From an archaeon (lineage in GTDB: Archaea; Nanobdellota; Nanobdellia; SCGC-AAA011-G17; PNOQ01): a stretch of DNA of 58,033 bases. Each line of letters opens with the position of its first letter. Positions within the stretch are counted from its first letter, which is position 1. The position numbers were made by a program, and so were the translations under genes. Below are positions 1,648 to 55,677 of this stretch, in pieces. The stretch spans positions 1-58,033 of the forward strand of contig JABICB010000009.1 in the NCBI GenBank assembly GCA_018652475.1. The letters run 5' to 3'. The notes under the pieces are model-generated. The model was not told where the DNA came from. It made no database searches and saw only the letters and a list, made by a program, of their open reading frames with translations.

Positions 1648-2880
1648 ATGAAGAGTATGTTTTTGATTTTACTAATTATTTGTATGCCTTTTGTTTATTC
1701 TATAGATATTGAAGAAATTTCTACTCTTGGAGGAAATTTAGGGGGCGAAGAAAGTATTACTCGTTATGTTTATGGTTTAAATGGGCTAGTTGCTTCAGTA
1801 AAAGATAATAAGATAAGATATCATCAGAATGATCGTATTGGGAGTAATCGTTTGATAATAGATGACTTTGGATTAGTTAAAAATAAATTTAAATCTTTAC
1901 CTTTTGGACAGGAAATCGAGAATACGGGAATAAAATTTAGTTTTGCAACTGGAAAAGAATTAGATGATTCTGGTTTGTATTATTTTGGTGCCAGGTATTA
2001 TGATTCTGATTTGGGCAGGTTTATATCTGTTGATCCAGTTCCTTCCGAGCCTGCATATCAATATGTTTCTAATAATCCTTTGAATTTAGTAGATTTGAAT
2101 GGGAATGAACCTTCTGTGTATAATTCTCAGACAGGTAATAAATTTCCAAATCCTATTAGTATCAATGATCTTGGAACTAAGTCATTTAATACTCAGCTTT
2201 ATATTTTTGATGAATTTATTGAATATAAAGGAGGGGCTTTATCAGAAGGTATAACTCTGAATATTGGTGCAGAGGGAAATAATGCTAGAGTTTCTACCAA
2301 TACTATAAATCTAAAAAGTAATGCCCATCCTAGTGCATTCGCTCATGAATTCGAACACCTCAGAACAGCTGGCACGAGAGGGGCTCTACGTGAGGGATTA
2401 GCATTCAAAGAAGGAGGATTATTTACTCAACACCTTAATAAAAAGTATAAGACAAATTTACATATTAATTCTGCTGAACGTGCTGCTATGAATGGTCCGA
2501 ACTCTTTTTTCAATTGGTATACTGACAAAAGTCCTTACTTGAAAGGTTATCCAGAACATAGTCCTTGGAATGCTGCAAAGGAGCTTGGACAAAGTAGATT
2601 ATTTAATCTTCCAAGAATTGCTAGGGCGACTGCATTTCAAAAATTATCTTCAACTTCATATAAGGGGGCAGCTAGCATTTTAGGTGCTTCATCAAAACTT
2701 CTTGGTGTAGCAGTGGTGGCGACTGCAATGGGATCAAGTGGGTTTTCAGTAGGTAATTTAAATGATAAAATACTTCAGTTTCAACCCGATCAGATGAAAT
2801 TAAACAGTTGCATGAGGTGCCATTCTTTTCAAGCTGTTGAAAATCAAGAACAGTATGGAGGGTGGAGTAATAAATATTAA
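1648..2880 (+). CDS. secreted RHS repeat-associated-core protein with C-terminal HExxH metallopeptidase-like domain (mini-RHS 1)
   Basis: Signal peptide MKSMFLILLIICMPFVYS. Core motifs YHQNDRIGSNRL, LPFGQE, GLYYFGARYYDSDLGRFISVDP, NNPLNLVDLNG. HEFEH encoded at 2344..2358. Gly/Ala-rich hydrophobic stretch near the C-terminus. Confidence 0.8.
   Translation: MKSMFLILLIICMPFVYSIDIEEISTLGGNLGGEESITRYVYGLNGLVASVKDNKIRYHQNDRIGSNRLIIDDFGLVKNKFKSLPFGQEIENTGIKFSFATGKELDDSGLYYFGARYYDSDLGRFISVDPVPSEPAYQYVSNNPLNLVDLNGNEPSVYNSQTGNKFPNPISINDLGTKSFNTQLYIFDEFIEYKGGALSEGITLNIGAEGNNARVSTNTINLKSNAHPSAFAHEFEHLRTAGTRGALREGLAFKEGGLFTQHLNKKYKTNLHINSAERAAMNGPNSFFNWYTDKSPYLKGYPEHSPWNAAKELGQSRLFNLPRIARATAFQKLSSTSYKGAASILGASSKLLGVAVVATAMGSSGFSVGNLNDKILQFQPDQMKLNSCMRCHSFQAVENQEQYGGWSNKY
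1747..2103 (+). repeat. dispersed 357-nt (119-codon) RHS-core module, copy 1
   Basis: Alignable codon-for-codon with 5726..6082 and 12510..12866. A 66-nt run at 1958..2023 is identical to 12721..12786. Confidence 0.85.
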
Positions 2881-3457: not shown

Positions 3458-4120
3458 ATGAATAAAATTAAAAAATCACTATTAACTGCTGGTATGTTAG
3501 GTTTGTTAGGATATGGGATGTTAACAAATCCTCCTAAATTAATTAGTAGTTCTGAGTTTGATGATAATGGGGTGAATTTGGAGTTGAGATTGGATTCTAC
3601 TTCATTTTTAGATATATCTGATAAGGAAATGGGATTGTCAAGAGAGAGAGTTGAATCTCTATTTTCTAATAATGGTGCTAGTTGTGCAGGGGCACTTTCA
3701 GTTTGTTATGCTGAAGTATTTAGGGGAAGAAGATTTGGCGGATTGATTGGTGCACATTATAAAGGGGATAATGGTGGAGTTTATGGTAATGCTTGGGATA
3801 TGAGAGATAATGTTATTTCACAGGGTGGAGAAGTAATATATTCTGGTGATTATGATAATTTCAAATCTATAGATTTCGATATAGGTTCACTTAGTTCAGG
3901 AGATATTCTTGGAATTTATTATGATGGAAGTAATTATAAAAAACCTGCGAAGGAATCCTTGGGTGATAATTATTACACTCATGTGGGTTTAATAATTGGA
4001 GAAAATGATTTAAATGAACCCATTATTATACATTATGTGAACAAACAGTTAATTGTTGAACCCTTGAAAGATTTAATTGATAAAAAAGATTACTCCCTTA
4101 AGGAAGTTTTCAGACCTTAA
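3458..4120 (+). CDS. secreted/anchored NlpC/P60-CHAP-like papain-fold hydrolase
   Basis: N-terminal hydrophobic anchor. Cys (ASCAGAL), GNAWDMRDN, YTHVGLII and IIHY align with the C-terminal domain of 5612..6727 (QCARGV, GNAWDMRKN, YTHVGFVV, IAHF), giving a Cys-His-His arrangement. Confidence 0.6.
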   Translation: MNKIKKSLLTAGMLGLLGYGMLTNPPKLISSSEFDDNGVNLELRLDSTSFLDISDKEMGLSRERVESLFSNNGASCAGALSVCYAEVFRGRRFGGLIGAHYKGDNGGVYGNAWDMRDNVISQGGEVIYSGDYDNFKSIDFDIGSLSSGDILGIYYDGSNYKKPAKESLGDNYYTHVGLIIGENDLNEPIIIHYVNKQLIVEPLKDLIDKKDYSLKEVFRP

Positions 4121-4172: not shown

Positions 4173-5576
4173 ATGGTGGACAACTATCAATCATATATGG
4201 AGTATGCACTTTTTAATAAAAATTTAACTTCTGAAGATGCAGAATATGTTATAAAAAATGTAGTTAAGAGAAAAGAGGATTTTGATACAGAAAAATTAAA
4301 ATTAATTTCTGAAGGTCATAGCGAAACAGAAACTTTACGATCAATTTATACAAATAGGATGGAAAATAGATTTATTCCAAAAAAATATTTACCTTCTTTT
4401 GTTGATGCTGCTATAGAATACTGGATGGGAAACAAATCTGATTTGAATTTTTCAAAAATTAATTCTGAAATTGTCAATAAATTATCAAAAACTGAAAATG
4501 TTGGTATCTCTTTTGCAAAAAGTTTGGCAGATAATCTTTTTGAAAATTATCATAATTCTATAATTTTAGATTCAATTAATGGTGAATTCAGTGAACTTGA
4601 AGTTTTAGTAAATGGTGAATTTGATGAATATTCCTATGATTATCCAGAAGGAGAGAATAATTTCCATTCTTTTATTAGAAAGTGTGATTTGAAAAGTATA
4701 TATTCAAATTATTTTAGTGATAAACGTCCAGTGAATCATCCTGAGTTTGGTTATGATAAACTATTTGTATTGACTTCAAGTAAGAATTGTTTTTTAGATA
4801 GTTTAAATTCATTAAATAATAAGGATTATTCTAGTTTTAGAAAAAACCCAATTATTCGTACTATTAATAAAATTCAAAGTGATGTGCCTAATTTATTTGG
4901 AAGTGTTTTATTAACACGAATGAAATCTGGGGGGAGGGCTGCAGATAAAATATTAAATGATGCTAGTCATCATGATATATTCGGAGTTAAATTATTAGTA
5001 GAAGATACTTCATATTTTTTCCCAGATTTTTCTGAAGACTTGTTCGATAATGATGAATTAAAAAATAATATAAGATTTAAATTAGAATCTTATTTGAAGA
5101 TTTCTTCATCCGAAGAGGTTACTTCGTTTTTAAAATCTGCATTGAATATATATGATACTGAAACCCATAGATTACCAATTCCTGCCACTTTAGATAATTC
5201 AAATGATATTTTTTCAATTGATAATCCTTATTTTTCTTTACTAATTCGTGCTTATGAAGTAATTGATTTTTTGGATAATTCAGATAAGTATAATTATCGT
5301 GTTTTAAATAGATTTACTAGGAAGGAATATCCTTCTGTCGTTTTCAAAATTGATGATGTTGATAATGATGAATCATTGGAGTTATTATTAGAACTTAACA
5401 AAACTGAAGATAAACTTTCTCATGATAATTATGTGACTCGGCGAGATCAGGTTACTAAATATTTAAAGAAAGTAATTCCTGAATTAGGTTCACTTAGTGA
5501 GTTTATTGATAATAAGTTATATCCTTCTCTAGATTTAGTTAATTTACAAAAATATTCTGATATTGATGAAAATTAG
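4173..5576 (+). CDS. hypothetical protein (467 aa, cytoplasmic, no recognised domain)
   Basis: Long ORF with ATG start and no signal peptide or TM segment. Lies between the two NlpC/P60-like genes. Confidence 0.6.
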   Translation: MVDNYQSYMEYALFNKNLTSEDAEYVIKNVVKRKEDFDTEKLKLISEGHSETETLRSIYTNRMENRFIPKKYLPSFVDAAIEYWMGNKSDLNFSKINSEIVNKLSKTENVGISFAKSLADNLFENYHNSIILDSINGEFSELEVLVNGEFDEYSYDYPEGENNFHSFIRKCDLKSIYSNYFSDKRPVNHPEFGYDKLFVLTSSKNCFLDSLNSLNNKDYSSFRKNPIIRTINKIQSDVPNLFGSVLLTRMKSGGRAADKILNDASHHDIFGVKLLVEDTSYFFPDFSEDLFDNDELKNNIRFKLESYLKISSSEEVTSFLKSALNIYDTETHRLPIPATLDNSNDIFSIDNPYFSLLIRAYEVIDFLDNSDKYNYRVLNRFTRKEYPSVVFKIDDVDNDESLELLLELNKTEDKLSHDNYVTRRDQVTKYLKKVIPELGSLSEFIDNKLYPSLDLVNLQKYSDIDEN

Positions 5577-5611: not shown

Positions 5612-6727
5612 ATGAAAAGAGGTTTTGTATTAGTTTTAGCATTTTTGTTATGTATTAGTTTTGTTAGTGCAAAAATTCCTATTAAAGATATTTCCGTTTC
5701 AGAAATTAATATTGATGAGCAAAGGGAAGAAAGTATTACTCGTTATATCTATGGGCTAAATGGTTTAGTTGCTTCTGTATCTGATTCTGGGATTAATTAT
5801 TATCATTCTGATAGATTAAAAAGTAATAGATTAATAACTAACTCTTTTGGTGAAATTATTAAACAGTTTAACTCCTTGCCTTTTGGGCAGGAAATTGAGA
5901 ATACTGGAATAAAATTTAGTTTTGCGACTGGAAAAGAATTAGATGAAAGTGATCTTTATCATTTTGGTGCACGTTATTATGATTCTGATTTGGGCAGGTT
6001 TACATCTATTGATCCAGTTAAAGAAAATCATGCTTATTCTTATGTTAGAAATAATCCTATGAATTTAGTTGATCCTAATGGTAGGGATGCTGTCAGTTTA
6101 AAACAAATTAATCTTCCTTCTGGTTATACTAATAATATTTTTGAATCTATGAGGGCTAATTTTGAGAATGTACACAATGCCGGCAAATATCAATGTGCAA
6201 GAGGGGTGAGTTATGCATATCAAACTTGGGCAGATATATCTAAAGATGAAAGAATTAAAAATACTAAGGTAACTGGTAATGCGTGGGACATGAGAAAAAA
6301 TATTGATAATTCAATATTAACAAAAAAGGTTACAGCTTATTCCGATTTTACTTCTGAAGAATTAAATTTATTTAAAGAAGGTGATATAATAGGAATTTAT
6401 AATCGTGATAGCAGTTATAATACTGCTGCAAAGGTGAAATTAGGTAACAATAATTATTATACTCACGTAGGTTTTGTTGTTGATGTTTTAAAAGATGGTA
6501 ATCCTATTATTGCACATTTTATAAAAGATACTATGAAAGTTGAAACTCTTTCTAATCTATTATCGGGGAAATTCGAATTTAGGGAATTATTGCGTCCAAA
6601 TCATTCTATTCAAGTAAACCTTAGGGAATGGTCTAAAGAGTATAAAGAAACTGGAAGTTCATCTATTAATACTTTTCACCACACAGTATCAGATAATCTG
6701 CCTGTAGAATTGCCTATTCCAGATTAG
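5612..6727 (+). CDS. secreted RHS repeat-associated-core protein with C-terminal NlpC/P60-CHAP-like domain (mini-RHS 2)
   Basis: Signal peptide ending VSA-K. Core motifs YYHSDRLKSNRL, LPFGQE, LYHFGARYYDSDLGRFTSIDP, NNPMNLVDPNG. The C-terminal domain is homologous to 3458..4120. Confidence 0.8.
   Translation: MKRGFVLVLAFLLCISFVSAKIPIKDISVSEINIDEQREESITRYIYGLNGLVASVSDSGINYYHSDRLKSNRLITNSFGEIIKQFNSLPFGQEIENTGIKFSFATGKELDESDLYHFGARYYDSDLGRFTSIDPVKENHAYSYVRNNPMNLVDPNGRDAVSLKQINLPSGYTNNIFESMRANFENVHNAGKYQCARGVSYAYQTWADISKDERIKNTKVTGNAWDMRKNIDNSILTKKVTAYSDFTSEELNLFKEGDIIGIYNRDSSYNTAAKVKLGNNNYYTHVGFVVDVLKDGNPIIAHFIKDTMKVETLSNLLSGKFEFRELLRPNHSIQVNLREWSKEYKETGSSSINTFHHTVSDNLPVELPIPD
5726..6082 (+). 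repeat. dispersed 357-nt RHS-core module, copy 2
   Basis: Aligns with copies 1 and 3. Long identical runs with copy 3 extend up to the DPxG junction, and similarity ends after it. Confidence 0.85.
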
Positions 6728-6762: not shown

Positions 6763-7257
6763 ATGGAAGAATTTCGTAAGTTAGTGGCGAAGGCAAATAA
6801 ACATTATAAAATTGCAGATCATATGACTTATGTAAGTTATAGACTATTAACTGACTTAAAAATTTTAATTAATGTTATTGAAAATATCAACAAGTCTTTG
6901 AAAGGTGGTGTTGATGCTTTATTGAAGTTAGATTACATTTACAAAAGAGTTAATTCCTATCCGCCTACTTTTGATGAAAGATTTATTTTATTTAAACAAC
7001 ATTGTATGAATCGTTATAAAATTGGAACTGAACAAATGTTATTGATTAGGGAATTAGATAGTATTTTAGCTCAGTATAAAAAAAGTCCAATGGCCTTTAC
7101 TCGTAATGAAAAGTTTGTTATTTATTCGGACGGATATAAAACTATGGAAACTTTGGATTTGAAAATTGTCAAATCTTATCTTTTAAAAGCAAAGGTTTTT
7201 ATATTAATATTGAATAATATACTACAAGAGAAGAATGCAGACTATAGACTTAGCTAA
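6763..7257 (+). CDS. hypothetical helical protein, paralogue of 7235..7675 (HEPN-like helical domain?)
   Basis: KIADHMTYVSY ... SYPPTFDERF pattern shared with the next ORF and with the C-terminal domains of the NTase proteins at 36925 and 45145. Overlaps the next gene. Confidence 0.55.
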   Translation: MEEFRKLVAKANKHYKIADHMTYVSYRLLTDLKILINVIENINKSLKGGVDALLKLDYIYKRVNSYPPTFDERFILFKQHCMNRYKIGTEQMLLIRELDSILAQYKKSPMAFTRNEKFVIYSDGYKTMETLDLKIVKSYLLKAKVFILILNNILQEKNADYRLS

Positions 7258-7675
7258 AGAGGAATTAAAACGTGTTGATCATATGTTCTATGTTAGTTTA
7301 AAATATACTAGGACTTGTGACGTCATTAGGAATATCATCAATAGGATGATAGCATCATATAATTATGTCTTTTCAGCAATTTTAGAGGATTTAGAATCTG
7401 ATGATAAAATTAGCGCTATACCTACTCATGATAGATTACGTGCGGAGAAAGTATTAGAATTGAAAAAAAATCATAAAGAATTCATCCAGCATTATTTTTT
7501 ATTGAGAAAAATTCATGATGCTGAATTCGATAGGCGTGAAGAATATAGAAAACATGTTACTTTGCTTGCCAAGTTCGGAGAGGATACAATCTTCGAAGTA
7601 AATGTTCCCTTAATTTTAGATTATTATAAAAAAGTCATAGAATATATAAAAATGGTTGAAGAGGAATTAAAATGA
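7235..7675 (+). CDS. hypothetical helical protein, paralogue of 6763..7257
   Basis: KRVDHMFYVSLKY ... AIPTHDRLRAEKVL. Its start overlaps the upstream stop and its stop overlaps the minD ATG (ATGA). Confidence 0.55.
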   Translation: MQTIDLAKEELKRVDHMFYVSLKYTRTCDVIRNIINRMIASYNYVFSAILEDLESDDKISAIPTHDRLRAEKVLELKKNHKEFIQHYFLLRKIHDAEFDRREEYRKHVTLLAKFGEDTIFEVNVPLILDYYKKVIEYIKMVEEELK

Positions 7676-8421
7676 CAAAATTTATAGGAATATTATCTGG
7701 AAAAGGGGGCGTTGCTAAAACAACTACTGTTGTAAATTTAGGGGCAGCTATGAATTATTTTGGCAGAGATGTTACACTTGTTGATGGAAATTTATCTACT
7801 CCTCACTTAGGTATTCATTTAGGGGTTCCGATTGTGCCTATCAGTTTGCACGATGCATTGAGTGGAAAAAATTCTTTGATTGAAGCAATGTATTTGCATC
7901 AATCGGGCATGAAGATCATTCCAGCAGGATTGTCTCTTAAGGATCTTATTGAAGTAGATCATTCAAAATTAAAAGAAGTTTTACCTACTTTGGAAGGTTT
8001 AACTGACATAGTATTAGTTGATGCTTCAGCAGGTTTAAGTGGCGAAGCTAGTGCAGTTTTAGACTGTGTACAAGATGTTATTGTGATTACTAATCCGGAA
8101 TTGCCTGCAGTTACAGATGCATTAAAAACTGTTAAATTGGCAGAGAGTAAAGGTAAAAATGTTAAGGGAATCATTGTTGCAAAAACAGGAGATGTTACTG
8201 ATATTCCTGTTGAAAATATTGCGGCATTAATTGAAAAACCAATATTAGCTATTATTCCTTTTGATAAATCAATTAGACAGTCTTTAATAAAAAAAGATCC
8301 AGTAATTTATACAAATCCTACTTCTAAAAGTGCACTTGCTTATAAAAAATTAGCTGCAGATTTAATTGGAATGGAATATAGGGTTGAAAAAAATAGCTGG
8401 TATAAATTTTGGAAGAAATAA
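7672..8421 (+). CDS. minD: MinD/ParA-family P-loop ATPase (archaeal MinD type)
   Basis: Deviant Walker A motif SGKGGVAKTT. Typical MinD length and motif order. Confidence 0.85.
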   Translation: MTKFIGILSGKGGVAKTTTVVNLGAAMNYFGRDVTLVDGNLSTPHLGIHLGVPIVPISLHDALSGKNSLIEAMYLHQSGMKIIPAGLSLKDLIEVDHSKLKEVLPTLEGLTDIVLVDASAGLSGEASAVLDCVQDVIVITNPELPAVTDALKTVKLAESKGKNVKGIIVAKTGDVTDIPVENIAALIEKPILAIIPFDKSIRQSLIKKDPVIYTNPTSKSALAYKKLAADLIGMEYRVEKNSWYKFWKK

Positions 8422-12398: not shown

Positions 12399-13571
12399 AT
12401 GAAAAGGGGTCATGTACTGGTGTTAGTATTTTTGTTATGTATCAGTTTTGCTAGTGCAAAAGTTTCTATTAAGGATATTTATTCAGGGGGTGATCTTGAT
12501 GAGCAAAGGGAAGAAAGTATTACTCGTTATATTTATGGGTTAAATGGTTTAGTTGCATCTGTATCTAATTCTGAGATTAATTATTATCATTCTGATAGAT
12601 TAAAAAGTAATAGGGTTGTTAGTGATGAAGATGGTCAACTAGTTAGTAAATTCAAATCATTACCTTTTGGACAGGAAATTGAAAACACTGGAATTAAATT
12701 TAGTTTTGCAACTGAAAAGGAATTAGATGATTCTGGTTTGTATTATTTTGGTGCCAGGTATTATGATTCTGATTTGGGCAGGTTTACATCTGTTGATCCA
12801 GTTAAAGAAAATCATGCTTATTCTTATGTTATGAATAATCCAATGAATTTAGTTGATCCTACTGGTATGGCTGGGACTACTATTATTCCTGATGACTCTA
12901 CTTTTATAGGCCCATTAGAAGAAGATAAAATGTATGCTTCGGATTATTTATTTTCTTGGTATTCCGGTTTATCTTCTGGTGAACAAAATACCCTGCTTAA
13001 TGCAGGTGCAGGAAGTTTAGTAACTGATGAATTAACGGGAAATTCTATCACTGGATATAGTAAGGGTGGACATAAGGGTTTAAAAATCAGTATTAATAAT
13101 TATTTTACATTATTATTTAAAATTAATAAAGAGGTACCCAATAATAAAATTTCTTTTTCTGATATTATCATTACAGAAGTTTCAAGGCATCAAACGGGGA
13201 GCGATATACATTCTAATATTAAATCAGATGGGAGTACCATAGCATTTCAACCAGATGTTGCTAGCAATCAACAATTATATTTGACTAAAAAACCCGGATC
13301 AAACACTAGATCTGAATTTCAAACGTTGAAGACTGGCAAGGATTTAACTAATGTGTTAGATGTAGATAGTTTAACTGCAAAACATAAATATACTAATAAA
13401 ATGGATTATGCCCAAATCCATGGTATTGGATGTTCAATAGGTTGTTATATGACTTCTAATGCAAGGGTTATTTCAAACTATATTAGTAATTCTAATACTA
13501 AATATAATAATGTTATTCGAGCTGCTGGTTTTGTAAATGCGCTTCCTTTATTTATAAAAAATATACAATAA
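12399..13571 (+). CDS. secreted RHS repeat-associated-core protein with unrecognised C-terminal domain (mini-RHS 3)
   Basis: Signal peptide ending ASA-K. The core module is near-identical to copy 2 (YYHSDRLKSNRV, LPFGQE, LYYFGARYYDSDLGRFTSVDP, NNPMNLVDPTG). The 235-aa tail has no recognisable motif. Confidence 0.8.
   Translation: MKRGHVLVLVFLLCISFASAKVSIKDIYSGGDLDEQREESITRYIYGLNGLVASVSNSEINYYHSDRLKSNRVVSDEDGQLVSKFKSLPFGQEIENTGIKFSFATEKELDDSGLYYFGARYYDSDLGRFTSVDPVKENHAYSYVMNNPMNLVDPTGMAGTTIIPDDSTFIGPLEEDKMYASDYLFSWYSGLSSGEQNTLLNAGAGSLVTDELTGNSITGYSKGGHKGLKISINNYFTLLFKINKEVPNNKISFSDIIITEVSRHQTGSDIHSNIKSDGSTIAFQPDVASNQQLYLTKKPGSNTRSEFQTLKTGKDLTNVLDVDSLTAKHKYTNKMDYAQIHGIGCSIGCYMTSNARVISNYISNSNTKYNNVIRAAGFVNALPLFIKNIQ
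12510..12866 (+). repeat. dispersed 357-nt RHS-core module, copy 3
   Basis: See copies 1 and 2. 12721..12786 is identical to 1958..2023. Confidence 0.85.
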
Positions 13572-13688: not shown

Positions 13689-16483
<2,795 letters not shown>

Positions 16484-16497
<14 letters not shown>

Positions 16498-52643: not shown

Positions 52644-54590
52644 ATGGTAAATAAAAATAATTTAGAGACAATCCTCCAAAAGGATGTGGGCTCTAAATCT
52701 GATTCTAAGTTGAAAAAATTTGGTTCAAATTTATTTAATAAAAAACATTGGAAAACGATTGGGAATAAATTAAATACTACAAAAAAACTTGATTTGAAAT
52801 CTTCATTATTGTTTTCTTCTTTATCGGGGCTGGGTGCAGCAGAGTTAATAGTCCGGGGCCATGTTGAAGAAGGAGTTCTACTTTCCACATCATTTGGTTC
52901 ACTTGCATATGCATATACAAATGTGCCTGCCGCATATAGGATCTTTAAACTGGATGAAAATAGATTGGATACTGTAGATAAATTAGTTAATAAAATTGGC
53001 GATGATTCTTTTTTAAATCAAGATTTAAAAAAATCTCTAAAAGTTTTTAATAAAAGTTCCGATGAAGATTTCGAAATAATTAAAGCATATATAGATACGT
53101 CAATTGATAAATCAGTTATATACTCAAAATTTTTAAATAATATTCATGAATCTATCTCTGGAAAATCAGTTGATATAAAAAAGTTCATTAAAAATTATGT
53201 AACTAATCCTCAGTTTCATTTATATCTTAATGAAAGTTCTGAAATAAGTGATATTCTAGAAACAAAATCGGATAAAGTTATAAAACTAGCAACAATTGCT
53301 GCCAAATCTAATCAAGTTAAACAACAATTTAGTTATTTATATAATTTAGATACTGATAATTATTTTGAGATTTATAAAAATCTTTTAGAATTAGAGGGAG
53401 GAGATACTTATGCAGTCCATTGTCTAGATCTTCAATTAAGGAGAAATATTGGTGATGATAAATTAAATTCATCCTTATCTCGTGCAGTTAAAAGAGGTTT
53501 AAAATTTAATAATTTAGGCAATCTACTCTCAAAATATAGCGATATGGAAAAAGGTGATAAAAGAAAAGATATTCTTTTGGATATCTCTGAACGAGTGTCA
53601 AGAACTTATTTTAATGATGCTGTTGATTTTATATCTGATCTTAGTTTAACTAATTCTTTTCTTTCTAAACAAGAGATATCTCAACGTAAGAAGTTAATTA
53701 ATACAATTCATGATATGGGAAAAAAGAAAAAAGCTAAGTTTTTCCATAGGGTAGTTCCCTTGTATAGGTTGTGTTCTGATAATATTTTATCTGTTTTAAG
53801 TTCATTTTCTAAGGATTATGATTTTACAAATATTGATAACTTCGATACAAATATAACTAATTATATTCAAGATTATTTTTCAATAGATGAAATTTCTTCA
53901 ACACTGAGTATGGATGAACAGATGCAGGTTTTTGCAAGTTATTCACATAACTGGAATGTAAGAAATTCGCTTAAATTTTCTAGTACTCTTTTGAGGGGTG
54001 GAGATATTTGGGAATATCGGTTTTCTAATTATCCTACTTTTAAAAAACATGATCAATTTCATAATTTGGCAAAAAATTATGTTTATGAAACGATATCTTC
54101 TAAAGGCGAAGACACACAATTTACTTATTTTACTCCTACTACACTTAAGGAATTCGCATTCATAGGAGAATATCCTTCTAAAACTTGTTTGGGGTTAAAT
54201 CGAATGAATTCAGATTGTTTAGTGAGGATGGCAGAAAATCCTAATATGATACCTTTTGTAGCATCTAACTCCGAAGGGAAAATTGTTAAGAGGGCCTTTT
54301 TATGGGATTCAGAAGATTATGTAATGATTGATGATATTTATGGTGATCAAAATATTGATATTATTCCTCAAGCTAAAATTTTTTCAGAAACTCTTGGGAA
54401 AAAATTAGTAGTACCTAATAGAATTTTTAATAATTATGTTTCTAGTTTAGATTCTGATGAAAAAGAAATTTTTTCAAATACTACCTTAGAAGAAATCACT
54501 ATTGATTTTGGTGAGCTTTCTTATTCAAATTCAGTGCCCGGAAGAGTTTCTGGTGAAAAGACATTGGAATGTTATATTCTCAATGATTAA
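52644..54590 (+). CDS. large hypothetical membrane-associated protein (648 aa)
   Basis: ATG 52644 (MVNKNN). Two hydrophobic segments near the N-terminus and no recognisable domain. The ORF-track extension from 52551 overlaps the divergent gene. Confidence 0.6.
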   Translation: MVNKNNLETILQKDVGSKSDSKLKKFGSNLFNKKHWKTIGNKLNTTKKLDLKSSLLFSSLSGLGAAELIVRGHVEEGVLLSTSFGSLAYAYTNVPAAYRIFKLDENRLDTVDKLVNKIGDDSFLNQDLKKSLKVFNKSSDEDFEIIKAYIDTSIDKSVIYSKFLNNIHESISGKSVDIKKFIKNYVTNPQFHLYLNESSEISDILETKSDKVIKLATIAAKSNQVKQQFSYLYNLDTDNYFEIYKNLLELEGGDTYAVHCLDLQLRRNIGDDKLNSSLSRAVKRGLKFNNLGNLLSKYSDMEKGDKRKDILLDISERVSRTYFNDAVDFISDLSLTNSFLSKQEISQRKKLINTIHDMGKKKKAKFFHRVVPLYRLCSDNILSVLSSFSKDYDFTNIDNFDTNITNYIQDYFSIDEISSTLSMDEQMQVFASYSHNWNVRNSLKFSSTLLRGGDIWEYRFSNYPTFKKHDQFHNLAKNYVYETISSKGEDTQFTYFTPTTLKEFAFIGEYPSKTCLGLNRMNSDCLVRMAENPNMIPFVASNSEGKIVKRAFLWDSEDYVMIDDIYGDQNIDIIPQAKIFSETLGKKLVVPNRIFNNYVSSLDSDEKEIFSNTTLEEITIDFGELSYSNSVPGRVSGEKTLECYILND

Positions 54591-55677
54591 TTTTTATTAT
54601 TTTTTCCCATGCAAAATCTTCATTTGTGAAATGACCATTTGTTGAAGTTTGTTTGTAGATTGGTTTTCTCAAATCAAAATATTCAATTATTTCTGAGGGT
54701 TTTAATGGAAAGTTTTCTTTTACTATTTTTATCAATTTTTCTTCTGATAATTCTGAAGTTCCAAATGAATCTATGAATATACTTACTGGTTCTGCAACTC
54801 CTATTGCATAACTTAAACCAACTTCACATCTTTGACATAGTTTATTTGCAACTAGGTTTTTTGCTATGAATCTCGCTGCGTATGCTGCACTCCTATCAAC
54901 TTTTGAAGGATCCTTGCCAGAAAATGCTCCCCCTCCATGTTTCCCCATTCCCCCATAGGTATCCACTATTATTTTTCTTCCTGTTACTCCTACATCAGCT
55001 TCTGGTCCGCCCTTAATGAAACTTCCAGTAGGATTTATTAAAAATTTAGTATTTTCATCTAAATAAGTTTTACAAACAGGTTTGATTACCTTTTCTAGGA
55101 TATCTCTTTCTAAGATATTCCTGTCTATTTCATTATGTTGAGTTGATAGAACTATAGTTTGAATTTTATTTGGTTTTGATTCGTGATATTTTACAGTTAC
55201 CTGGGATTTTCCATCAGGCATAATATAATTTATTTCTTTACTTTTTCTCAATTCTGTTAATTTCTTTGTTAGTTTATGTGCTAAGTAAATTGGTAGTGGC
55301 AAGTAGTTATCTGTTTCATTACATGCGTAACCAAACATCATACCTTGGTCTCCTGCACCTTGTTCTTTATTTTCTTCTTTATTTACTCCTTGAGAAATTT
55401 CTTGACTTTGTTTTGTTACATTTATAATTATTTTAGGATTATACTCATATCCAATTTCTTTTATTACATTCCTTGCTGTTTCGGCCAAATTTACTTTCGC
55501 ATTTGAAGATATTTCTCCCGCCAAGATTACTAAATCATTCTTTACTAGAGTTTCAATAGCTACTCTTGAGTTTTTATCTTGTTTTAGGTGTTCATCTAAG
55601 ATTGCGTCTGAGATTTGGTCACACATTTTATCAGGGTGACCTTCAGTTACTGATTCAGAAGTAAATAATTTTTCCAT
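54580..55677 (-). CDS. metK: S-adenosylmethionine synthetase, bacterial/eukaryotic type
   Basis: ESVTEGHPDKMCDQISDAILD, GAGDQGMMFGYA and GGGAFSGKDPSKVDRSAAY. Confidence 0.9.
   Translation of the reverse strand: MEKLFTSESVTEGHPDKMCDQISDAILDEHLKQDKNSRVAIETLVKNDLVILAGEISSNAKVNLAETARNVIKEIGYEYNPKIIINVTKQSQEISQGVNKEENKEQGAGDQGMMFGYACNETDNYLPLPIYLAHKLTKKLTELRKSKEINYIMPDGKSQVTVKYHESKPNKIQTIVLSTQHNEIDRNILERDILEKVIKPVCKTYLDENTKFLINPTGSFIKGGPEADVGVTGRKIIVDTYGGMGKHGGGAFSGKDPSKVDRSAAYAARFIAKNLVANKLCQRCEVGLSYAIGVAEPVSIFIDSFGTSELSEEKLIKIVKENFPLKPSEIIEYFDLRKPIYKQTSTNGHFTNEDFAWEKIIKINH

Follow-up and report, generated by a model that had tools for sequence, protein, structure and literature searches.

The gene at positions 5612..6727 encodes a protein whose tail is assigned, by sequence comparison and a structural model, to the NlpC/P60 superfamily, as a divergent predicted cysteine hydrolase with the triad Cys195-His285-His302. 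The comparisons divide the product into three parts, namely a Sec-type signal peptide, an RHS-associated core and this hydrolase tail. It is rather likely that such a Sec-secreted, shell-less mini-RHS, in which a C-terminal RHS segment of only ~120 residues is joined to a hydrolase of ~170 residues, is directed against the wall of a neighbouring bacterium. The reading frame, referred to as mini-RHS 2, extends from ATG to stop (371 aa plus stop in the ORF list) on the forward strand, as do all features described here, and a recorded protein (P0001) is identical to its product. The window, i.e., the whole stretch of 58,033 nucleotides analysed, features archaeal informational genes throughout, and related loci show archaeal marker genes as well as synteny. 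The host genome is small, archaeal and Woesearchaeota-like.

By sequence reading, the N-terminus MKRGFVLVLAFLLCISFVSA/K features n-, h- and c-regions as in Sec signal peptides, and a hydrophobicity scan gave a window score of 3.13 for the predicted signal peptide (aa 1-20, 5612..5671). The same scan revealed a comparable pattern in 41 of the 45 members of the mini-RHS family. The subsequent RHS stub (aa 41-158, 5732..6085) comprises the last YD-type strands and the C-terminal plug, or aspartyl-protease region. Residues 41-164 match the C-terminal end of solved RHS/Tc/teneurin shells with E-values down to 6e-14, the aligned shell ends being those of SGS1, TccC3, YenC2 and teneurin-like proteins, and TIGR03696 (Rhs_assc_core) matches aa 90-157 with 66.1 bits against a cut-off of 32.5 (E 3e-18). 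The RHS-associated core amounts to 119 aa. A YD-repeat beta-shell for encapsulation of the tail is absent: N-terminal to the core there is room for aa ~41-89 only, in a protein of 371 aa in total. Two DPxGL-type motifs have been defined for Rhs proteins, with the catalytic aspartate located in the second (Jurenas et al., 2021, PMC8636562). The stub features D134-P and D154-P-N-G, and DPNGR (6071..6085), the counterpart of the second motif, coincides with the boundary of conserved and variable sequence and is the predicted self-cleavage site. D124, D134, D154 and G157 are invariant (45/45 family members), and the fifth residue of the motif is M in 24/45. Self-cleavage of RHS proteins has been demonstrated only within a complete shell, and the motif of the present stub has R after the G instead of L or M.

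The stub recurs within the window. Residues 1-159 are 62% identical (BLASTP E 5e-62) to ORF 1648..2880 (mini-RHS 1, 410 aa), in which the same secreted stub carries an unrelated tail with HEFEH at aa 233-237. Together with the TIGR03696 match, this bears out the likeness of signal peptide and RHS core that the first-pass annotation had seen between these two copies, although its count of two falls short by one: a third copy (mini-RHS 3, 12399..13571, 390 aa) has a stub 80% identical to that of copy 2, again followed by an unrelated tail. The likeness of mini-RHS 1 and 2 runs up to VDPNG (G157) and is lost from the next residue, and the start of the tail was set at about residue 159. On the DNA level, identity between the window copies drops from 73-98% to the background of about 47% after codon 157. 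The alignment of the tail with a free-standing protein, claimed in the same annotation, was equally reproduced. This paralogue (3458..4120, 220 aa), which has an N-terminal hydrophobic anchor or signal as well as C76, H175 and H192, is 33% identical over its aa 62-220 to aa 181-329 of the tail (BLASTP E 1e-19), with all quoted motifs aligned (QCARGV/SCAGAL, GNAWDMR(K/D)N, GDI(I/L)GIY, YYTHVG and II(A/I)H). An orthologue of it (P0002) is found in the same place after the NAC gene in locus L007. The C-terminal extension of mini-RHS 2 (aa 330-371, 6599..6724), for which relatives were not detectable, is missing from the paralogue.

The hydrolase domain was assigned to aa 181-329 (6152..6598) by BLASTP, HMMER, AlphaFold, hhalign and Foldseek. 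Conservation, the model and an alignment with MepS agree on Cys195 (codon 6194..6196) as predicted nucleophile, His285 (6464..6466, in YYTHVG) as predicted general base and His302 (6515..6517, in IIAHF) as predicted third triad residue. Across the 134 tail relatives collected by an exhaustive HMMER search, these positions are occupied by Cys in 123/124, His in 134/134 and His in 127/132 cases, respectively, while W225 and S267 are near-invariant as well, and the Cys/His positions are kept in all four mini-RHS orthologue tails. The AlphaFold model of the tail (pLDDT 86.7) puts the triad in the canonical papain/NlpC-P60 placement, with Cys195 (model residue 36) one residue inside the N-terminal end of helix 35-48, His285 as first residue of strand 126-133 and His302 on the next strand (139-145). 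This model took in only residues 330-340 of the C-terminal extension, with low confidence there, whereas a single-sequence prediction for the full 371-aa protein was unusable (pLDDT 35.7).

The superfamily assignment relies on hhalign, which aligned the family with seven NlpC/P60 proteins over 100 columns including the triad (Prob 92.8%, E 4.1e-7) and placed Cys195, His285 and His302 on the MepS motifs DCSGF, RHVG and FVHA, respectively; the RHS stub as negative control reached a Prob of 0.04%. The target alignment consisted of E. coli MepS, MepH, NlpC and YafL and three PF00877 proteins. It was used instead of one single NlpC/P60 sequence, against which the family profile was too weak (Prob 2%), and the E. 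coli paralogues were added from RefSeq because a homologue search with the NlpC/P60 protein of locus L004 gave only four proteins. None of the Pfam, NCBIfam or PHROG models matched the tail above threshold. The best Pfam match, CHAP (PF05257), spans the segment from Cys to His with 19.7 bits (E 0.0012) at a gathering threshold of 26 bits. PF00877 (NLPC_P60) matched neither the tail nor the free-standing paralogue at E <= 1 and was not among the families matched by 95 relatives at E <= 0.01, which showed weak similarity to Amidase_6, CHAP (in 4/95) and C92. In Foldseek, the best PDB matches were papain-like, CHAP and NlpC/P60 entries (9l5u, the CHAP domain 5t1q, staphopain, 2hbw/2evr), and CHAP proteins headed the viral library BFVD (prob 1.0, TM 0.44); nearly all of the top matches were papain-like but weak, at TM 0.36-0.44 and a best E of 1.6e-3. 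The top PDB entry, 9l5u, is not a wall enzyme but a papain-like toxin that acts inside cells and has an immunity partner. A sequence-profile search against the PDB yielded marginal matches to YiiX, a Tn916-like wall hydrolase and 3kw0 (E 0.09-1.3). Used alone as query of a word-indexed homology search, the tail retrieved nothing but itself, and a 20-sequence profile search added solely unnamed proteins, so that the family is nameless in the sources searched. DUF1615 was dismissed as identity of the domain, since it forms a domain of its own, which follows the hydrolase in some relatives on the C-terminal side.

With the NlpC/P60 endopeptidases (PF00877; MepS/Spr, MepH, NlpC, YafL), the tail family shares the Cys-His-His order, its placement on the secondary structure and the hallmark motif GD(I/L)v...THvG. 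It differs from them by the lack of a PF00877 match, an identity of 11% in the aligned region, an invariant A-W (224-225) and S267 of its own and a long insert from the Cys helix to the beta sheet. CHAP amidases and endopeptidases (PF05257; phage endolysins, S. aureus amidase 5t1q) provided the best matches in Pfam and in the viral Foldseek library, but the score is sub-threshold and the TM only 0.27-0.44. Moreover, the third triad residue of CHAP enzymes is usually Asn, Glu or Asp, whereas that of the tail is His. The two outcomes that the first pass had named as refuting, a non-hydrolase fold in profile searches and poorly conserved Cys/His positions among orthologues, did not arise: the searches put the tail in the papain-like NlpC/P60-CHAP fold, and the Cys/His positions are conserved. 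The Cys-His-His arrangement, which had been ascribed to NlpC/P60 and CHAP alike, follows the NlpC/P60 pattern and not the usual CHAP pattern.

Regarding the substrate, the domain partners of the relatives point to peptidoglycan. PG_binding_1 is carried by 22/95 relatives and PG_binding_3, LysM or SLT by others (Pfam), and a 2,730-aa archaeal protein joins SLT with a tail-type hydrolase domain. The tail probably functions in cutting bacterial cell walls, and a walled partner as target, as suggested earlier, has become more plausible through the fusions with PG_binding_1, LysM and SLT. According to the mechanism proposed, mini-RHS 2 would be exported by the Sec pathway, with the stub acting as a common handle for export and processing and also for recombination. 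Rhs proteins are cleaved autocatalytically behind DPxGL, and the stub may undergo the same reaction behind DPNG(R). The tail, freed or still tethered, would then attack a neighbouring bacterium by cleaving peptide or amide bonds in the stem peptides of its peptidoglycan wall. The 2,730-aa protein also matches the giant murein-transglycosylase proteins of Woese- and Pacearchaeota (PMC8204110).

It is unlikely, but deserves consideration, that the papain-fold hydrolase acts on another substrate, i.e., on protein, S-layer glycoprotein, pseudomurein or lipid of an archaeal host or neighbour. Relatives of NlpC/P60 enzymes include proteases, acyltransferases and phospholipases (LRAT/PLAAT family) and amidases of other polymers, two papain-like protease toxins (9l5u, 8ssk) are among the best PDB fold matches, as are staphopain and cathepsins, and Pfam revealed no PG-binding or other wall-binding module within the tail. 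Cultured DPANN archaea, moreover, have archaeal hosts. Nevertheless, the repeated fusion of the domain to murein-specific SLT, PG_binding_1 and LysM and the profile match to murein endopeptidases, which share its Cys-His-His triad, argue for peptidoglycan, and neither the tail nor the 95 relatives matched the pseudomurein endoisopeptidase family or pseudomurein-binding repeats in Pfam. Far less probable is a classical polymorphic toxin acting inside a competitor cell, with immunity conferred by one of the two small co-directional genes directly 3' (6763..7257, p164, and 7235..7675, p146). The intracellular toxin 9l5u with its immunity partner as top fold match would suit this scenario. The two genes, however, belong with MinD to a conserved operon for cytoplasmic proteins, in which their reading frames overlap one another as well as the start of MinD. 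They lack signal peptides and are 64-65% identical across relatives, compared to 44% between the whole toxin protein and its orthologues P0005/P0006; they were consequently discarded as immunity proteins. Both are absent next to the orthologue P0004; in locus L001, a convergent methyltransferase gene comes next, in a different neighbourhood, and for most genes of the mini-RHS family the next gene is either convergent or of housekeeping type. No immunity-like gene was found 3' of 5612..6727, and no immunity gene is conserved across the mini-RHS family. This context fits the earlier inference that an archaeon without such a wall would need none, and in the mechanism proposed here the producer, having no murein, would likewise do without an immunity protein.

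It is distinctly improbable that the protein serves the archaeon's own housekeeping, for instance by remodelling the envelope or separating cells, and that the gene order at the MinD operon mirrors this. The position of 5612..6727 in the order NAC ... mini-RHS-hydrolase - p177 - p144 - MinD - HisRS is kept in related genomes, the free-standing paralogue is likewise syntenic and the tail is conserved among orthologues; a lineage-specific housekeeping role would also fit the conserved housekeeping neighbourhood and the orthologue-conserved tail. The variability attributed to the tail in the first pass holds across the mini-RHS family but not at this locus. Against a housekeeping role stands the extreme variability of the multi-copy family that shares the stub, as is typical of conflict or host-interaction genes: on related metagenomic contigs, 45 distinct tails, which fall into 35 unrelated BLAST clusters, are attached to one conserved secreted stub. 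In addition, the orthologue in L001 sits elsewhere, and genes for murein or pseudomurein synthesis were not among the 28 Pfam-scanned ORFs of the 58-kb window, which include most of the larger ones. The idea that the gene is merely an orphan RHS tip without function, left behind by recombination like the cassettes downstream of bacterial rhs genes, is scarcely credible. Like bacterial orphan cassettes, e.g., a 274-aa ORF after a 1,403-aa RHS protein in the bacterial locus L009, it contains a core fragment only. Yet it starts with an ATG and a signal peptide of its own and has an uninterrupted frame, invariant catalytic residues in stub and tail and a length that is conserved at 340-450 aa in the 45 variants, with one exception of 546 aa, and a full-length RHS gene occurs neither in the window nor in any archaeal locus fetched.

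Beyond the single gene, it is quite possible, though put forward here tentatively, that Woesearchaeota-like DPANN archaea secrete a class of polymorphic effectors not described before, the shell-less mini-RHS proteins. The plug would be reduced to a self-cleaving handle for Sec export and recombination, and its dozens of interchangeable tails (wall hydrolases, LysM, C39-like, zincin-like and many unknown folds), which lack immunity genes, would form an arsenal against bacterial hosts or prey. The proteins resemble Rhs/TcC polymorphic toxins in the Rhs-associated core, the invariant aspartates, the DPxG boundary with unrelated tails directly after the motif, the presence of several copies per genome and the signs of recombination between copies. 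In contrast to those toxins, they have no YD shell, with ~70 residues from signal peptide to core, neither T6SS, T7SS, TcA/TcB partner, PAAR nor VgrG but a plain Sec signal for predicted export, no immunity gene and an archaeal host. Bacterial polymorphic toxins with NlpC/P60 tips have been described before, and classical polymorphic toxin systems were reported to be rare in archaea (Zhang et al., 2012, PMC3482391). The literature searched, to which Makarova et al. (2019, mBio, on archaeal polymorphic toxins) did not belong, contains no mention of RHS in DPANN.

A further close counterpart of the proposed enzyme is found in the peptidoglycan hydrolases of archaea, including the giant SLT proteins known from Woesearchaeota and Pacearchaeota. 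They are secreted murein-directed enzymes of wall-less DPANN, the tail-type hydrolase domain also being part of the 2,730-aa SLT protein. Such enzymes have been interpreted as tools against bacteria (Castelle et al., 2021, PMC8204110; Vigneron et al., 2022, PMC9723730; Strock et al., 2025, PMC12352652). These studies searched with known catalytic domains plus wall-binding domains, or for GH23, an approach that would overlook the fusion with an RHS core as well as the unannotated hydrolase domain. The tail represents an unannotated branch of the NlpC/P60 superfamily, which surveys of archaeal wall hydrolases by known domains currently miss. No member of the Woesearchaeota has been cultured, which leaves their hosts and lifestyles obscure, and a murein-type hydrolase that is predicted to be secreted and comes without self-protection lends weight to published suggestions that some Woesearchaeota live or prey on bacteria. 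The mini-RHS family provides a ready list of candidate effectors, and if it is indeed an effector class, the range of its tails would reveal the targets of these uncultured archaea. The persistence of an RHS core without its shell further raises the question of a role of its own, either in self-cleavage or as recombination handle. As to the distribution of the hydrolase, tblastn of the tail against GenBank phages gave no match, and the relative P0017 matches a gut phage only outside the hydrolase domain. The hydrolase branch is common to archaea, a protein with a bacterial-type neighbour gene and phage-like proteins.

We conclude that the tail of mini-RHS 2, the part beyond its RHS stub, forms a divergent branch within the NlpC/P60 superfamily, one that has escaped annotation so far. 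The gene (5612..6727, + strand) is a complete reading frame of 371 aa, whose N-terminus resembles a Sec signal peptide on direct reading and in a hydrophobicity scan. Residues 1-159 share 62% identity (E 5e-62) with the start of mini-RHS 1 (ORF 1648..2880), and TIGR03696, the RHS repeat-associated core model, matches residues 90-157 with 66 bits at a curated cut-off of 32.5. The similarity between both copies stops after VDPNG. Beyond this point, residues 181-329 match the free-standing paralogue (ORF 3458..4120, residues 62-220; 33% identity, E 1e-19), with all motifs quoted in the first-pass annotation in register. The core shared with copy 1 and the tail shared with the free-standing protein were thus confirmed, far beyond chance.

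The tail itself belongs neither to PF00877 nor to PF05257 as judged by the thresholds of these models. Its best Pfam match, CHAP, is sub-threshold (E 0.0012, 19.7 bits vs 26), NCBIfam and PHROGs gave zero matches, and a word-indexed search of 5.8 billion proteins returned the query alone. When a profile built from both window copies was run in an exhaustive HMMER search, 134 cluster representatives were obtained at E <= 0.001. The Cys and His positions, which the first-pass annotation had proposed as catalytic, proved conserved in the aligned domain segments of these relatives (Cys195 in 123/124, His285 in 134/134, His302 in 127/132), as are Trp225 (127/127) and Ser267 (132/134). With Cys-His-His, the triad follows the NlpC/P60 pattern, not the typical CHAP one. 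In an AlphaFold model of the domain, based on a 55-sequence alignment (mean pLDDT 86.7, pTM 0.84), Cys195 is the second residue of a helix, His285 begins a beta strand and His302 is located on the following strand, which is the canonical non-permuted papain/NlpC-P60 arrangement as far as the model is concerned. Foldseek returned no close structure (TM 0.36-0.44); nevertheless, the top matches were almost all papain-like, including the papain-like toxin 9l5u, the CHAP-containing S. aureus amidase 5t1q, staphopain and the NlpC/P60 endopeptidases 2hbw and 2evr, and CHAP-domain proteins ranked first in the viral library (probability 1.0, E 1.6e-3). Profile-profile comparison of the tail family with an NlpC/P60 reference set, consisting of E. 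coli MepS, MepH, NlpC and YafL (RefSeq) and three archaeal proteins passing PF00877, yielded Prob 92.8% and E 4e-7 over 100 columns. Here, the Cys, His and His of the family fall on three MepS motifs, DCSGF, RHVG and FVHA, while the RHS stub as negative control scored Prob 0.04%. The assignment of the tail to the papain-like NlpC/P60-type fold is close to certain. Two outcomes that would have spoken against the first-pass reading, a non-hydrolase fold in profile searches and poorly conserved Cys/His positions, did not occur.

In alignments, residues 41-164 correspond to the very C-terminus of RHS-type shells with known structure (mosquito SGS1, TccC3, YenC2, teneurin-like proteins and T6SS Rhs; E down to 6e-14). 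The shell is absent, with about 70 residues between signal peptide and core in a protein of 371 aa. The stub is the counterpart of an RHS shell's C-terminal plug, which in Photorhabdus Rhs1 comprises about 95 residues with two DPLGL motifs, the second containing the catalytic aspartate and being followed by the cleavage site (PMC8636562). D124, D134, D154 and G157 are invariant in 45/45 mini-RHS sequences, and we argue from this invariance that some function of the aspartate motif would be maintained. Conservation breaks off one residue past G157, where Met occurs in 24/45 sequences and Arg in mini-RHS 2. At the DNA level, the three stubs of the window (5612..6082, 12399..12866 and 1648..2103) show 73-98% identity, and directly beyond codon 157 the value drops to about 47%; this is a cassette structure as known from polymorphic toxins. 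Within the stubs, 60-nt blocks of 97-98% identity are embedded in surroundings of 60-85%. Such blocks, together with the abrupt drop after codon 157, suggest recombination or gene conversion between dispersed copies.

Scanning JGI metagenome contigs revealed 48 mini-RHS-related loci, often several per contig. The encoded proteins consistently feature 340-450 aa, and a signal peptide was predicted at the N-terminus of 41/45. Clustering of their 45 distinct tails gave 35 groups without detectable mutual similarity, with only a few tails matching Pfam (LysM, Peptidase_C39_2, weak CHAP, fn3). One cluster, with four members, comprises the hydrolase tail of the window copy and those of the orthologues P0004, P0005 and P0006. 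In the closest relatives, this tail keeps the same chromosomal position (NAC ... mini-RHS-hydrolase, 177-aa gene, 144-aa gene, MinD, HisRS). Tails thus vary from one family member to another, whereas at this locus the tail is stable. Mini-RHS 3 (12399..13571, +; 390 aa) has a stub 80% identical to that of copy 2 and an unrelated tail with zero detectable relatives. It lies between a PIN-domain gene and gyrB; in a Woesearchaeota MAG this slot holds two tandem mini-RHS genes (L008:4726-7149), and in the related locus L004 a secreted canonical PF00877 NlpC/P60 protein (L004:16090-16698). The tail of mini-RHS 1 contains HEFEH (aa 233-237, 2344..2358), a zincin-type HExxH motif, and may be a metallopeptidase; no Pfam model matches it. 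A mini-RHS immediately upstream of a hydrolase-tail orthologue (L004:6453-7646) carries a different tail with a Cys...His pattern of its own, PCTAGACAV ... VGHTVIV, possibly a second, unrelated cysteine hydrolase.

The expectation that mini-RHS 2 needs no immunity gene fits its gene context. Directly downstream on the + strand, two small genes (6763..7257 and 7235..7675; 164 and 146 aa) overlap each other and the start of a MinD/ParA ATPase gene (7672..8421). Their products are helical, weakly similar to each other, without signal peptides and without family assignment. Counterparts in relatives share 64-65% identity, the value for whole mini-RHS 2 against P0005 and P0006 being 44%, and the trio with MinD is kept at 64-78% in related genomes (L003-L006). 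A role as immunity proteins was therefore rejected, as both behave as a conserved cytoplasmic operon with MinD, which may constitute an uncharacterised MinD-associated module. Next to P0004, a convergent methyltransferase gene follows, and family-wide the gene after mini-RHS is mostly convergent or housekeeping, e.g., gyrB. That no cognate immunity gene is present agrees with tails whose targets are structures lacking in the producer. No murein or pseudomurein synthesis genes occur among the 28 Pfam-scanned ORFs (most of the larger ones) of the 58-kb window, which is too short to settle their absence.

Peptidoglycan is the most likely substrate, as predicted by association, because the domain is repeatedly paired with murein-specific modules. 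Among 95 relatives scanned, PG_binding_1 was present in 22/95, PG_binding_3 in 8/95, SLT in 3/95 and LysM in 1/95, with longer relatives arranged as LysM-domain-DUF1615, SLT-domain-DUF1615 or PG_binding_1 followed by the domain; the mini-RHS 2 tail itself lacks a wall-binding module. One relative, a protein of 2,730 aa (L062:6001-14193), contains both an SLT lytic-transglycosylase domain and this Cys-His-His domain; it is encoded on an archaeal contig with ribosomal proteins S3Ae, S8e and L37e as neighbours. It corresponds to the giant murein transglycosylases reported to be typical of Woesearchaeota and Pacearchaeota with small genomes (PMC8204110), which are read as tools to bind or degrade bacterial walls (PMC8204110; PMC9723730). 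Other relatives adjoin NAC on an archaeal contig (P0008), adjoin a bacterial-type YkuD transpeptidase gene (P0041) or come from a phage-like contig with small ORFs (P0017). DUF1615, fused C-terminally to the hydrolase domain in several relatives (P0041, P0058 and P0086), also occurs as a free-standing protein right after the 2,730-aa protein (L062:14475-15089) and may be another muralytic or wall-binding module.

In the best-supported reading, which we consider moderately probable and in which substrate, self-cleavage and target are inferred, mini-RHS 2 would be exported by the Sec pathway, the stub would possibly cut itself at DPNG, and the tail would then cleave bacterial peptidoglycan, the producer needing no immunity. 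NlpC/P60 peptidases were described as bacterial polymorphic-toxin tips in 2012, with classical polymorphic toxin systems being rare in archaea and Sec-dependent export of RHS-containing toxins being listed (PMC3482391). Haloarchaeal peptidoglycan hydrolases were shown to kill bacteria, and such archaeal enzymes were reported to be especially common in GTDB Nanoarchaeota, the phylum including Woesearchaeales (PMC12352652). As a bacterial target was already proposed for Woesearchaeota from SLT proteins (PMC8204110; PMC9723730), the ecological reading is not new. What appears new is, first, that the shell-less, Sec-exported mini-RHS forms an expanded polymorphic family without immunity genes in these archaea and, second, an unannotated NlpC/P60-like family to which mini-RHS tails and free-standing secreted proteins belong along with the giant SLT proteins and muralytic proteins of phage-like type. 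The literature searched, which did not cover a 2019 survey of archaeal polymorphic toxins, contained no link between RHS and DPANN, and an earlier description is possible.

With a GC content of about 29%, the window is a low-GC part of an archaeal chromosome and carries the archaeal marker genes NAC, eIF2-gamma, aIF5B and XPD; as further markers, Sec61-beta, ribosomal proteins S27ae and S24e, Spt4 and Rpo7 were assigned via syntenic counterparts in related loci. The order ScpA, S24e, Rpo7, PIN, mini-RHS, gyrB, gyrA is common to the window and a 'Candidatus Woesearchaeota archaeon' MAG, the closest named relative in the genome collection, and from this synteny the organism is treated as a Woesearchaeota-like DPANN archaeon. 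An acidic 467-aa protein is encoded between the free-standing hydrolase and mini-RHS 2 (4173..5576, +), with neither signal peptide nor Pfam match nor homologue in any related locus compared; in L007, a mini-RHS directly follows the free hydrolase. A DUF4015 'putative glycosyl hydrolase' gene (15592..16497, +; E 2e-47) lies between gyrB and gyrA and overlaps both, these being adjacent without it in the Woesearchaeota MAG L008. Besides, a bacterial-type S-adenosylmethionine synthetase (MetK, three Pfam domains; 54580..55677, - strand) is found amid otherwise archaeal genes.
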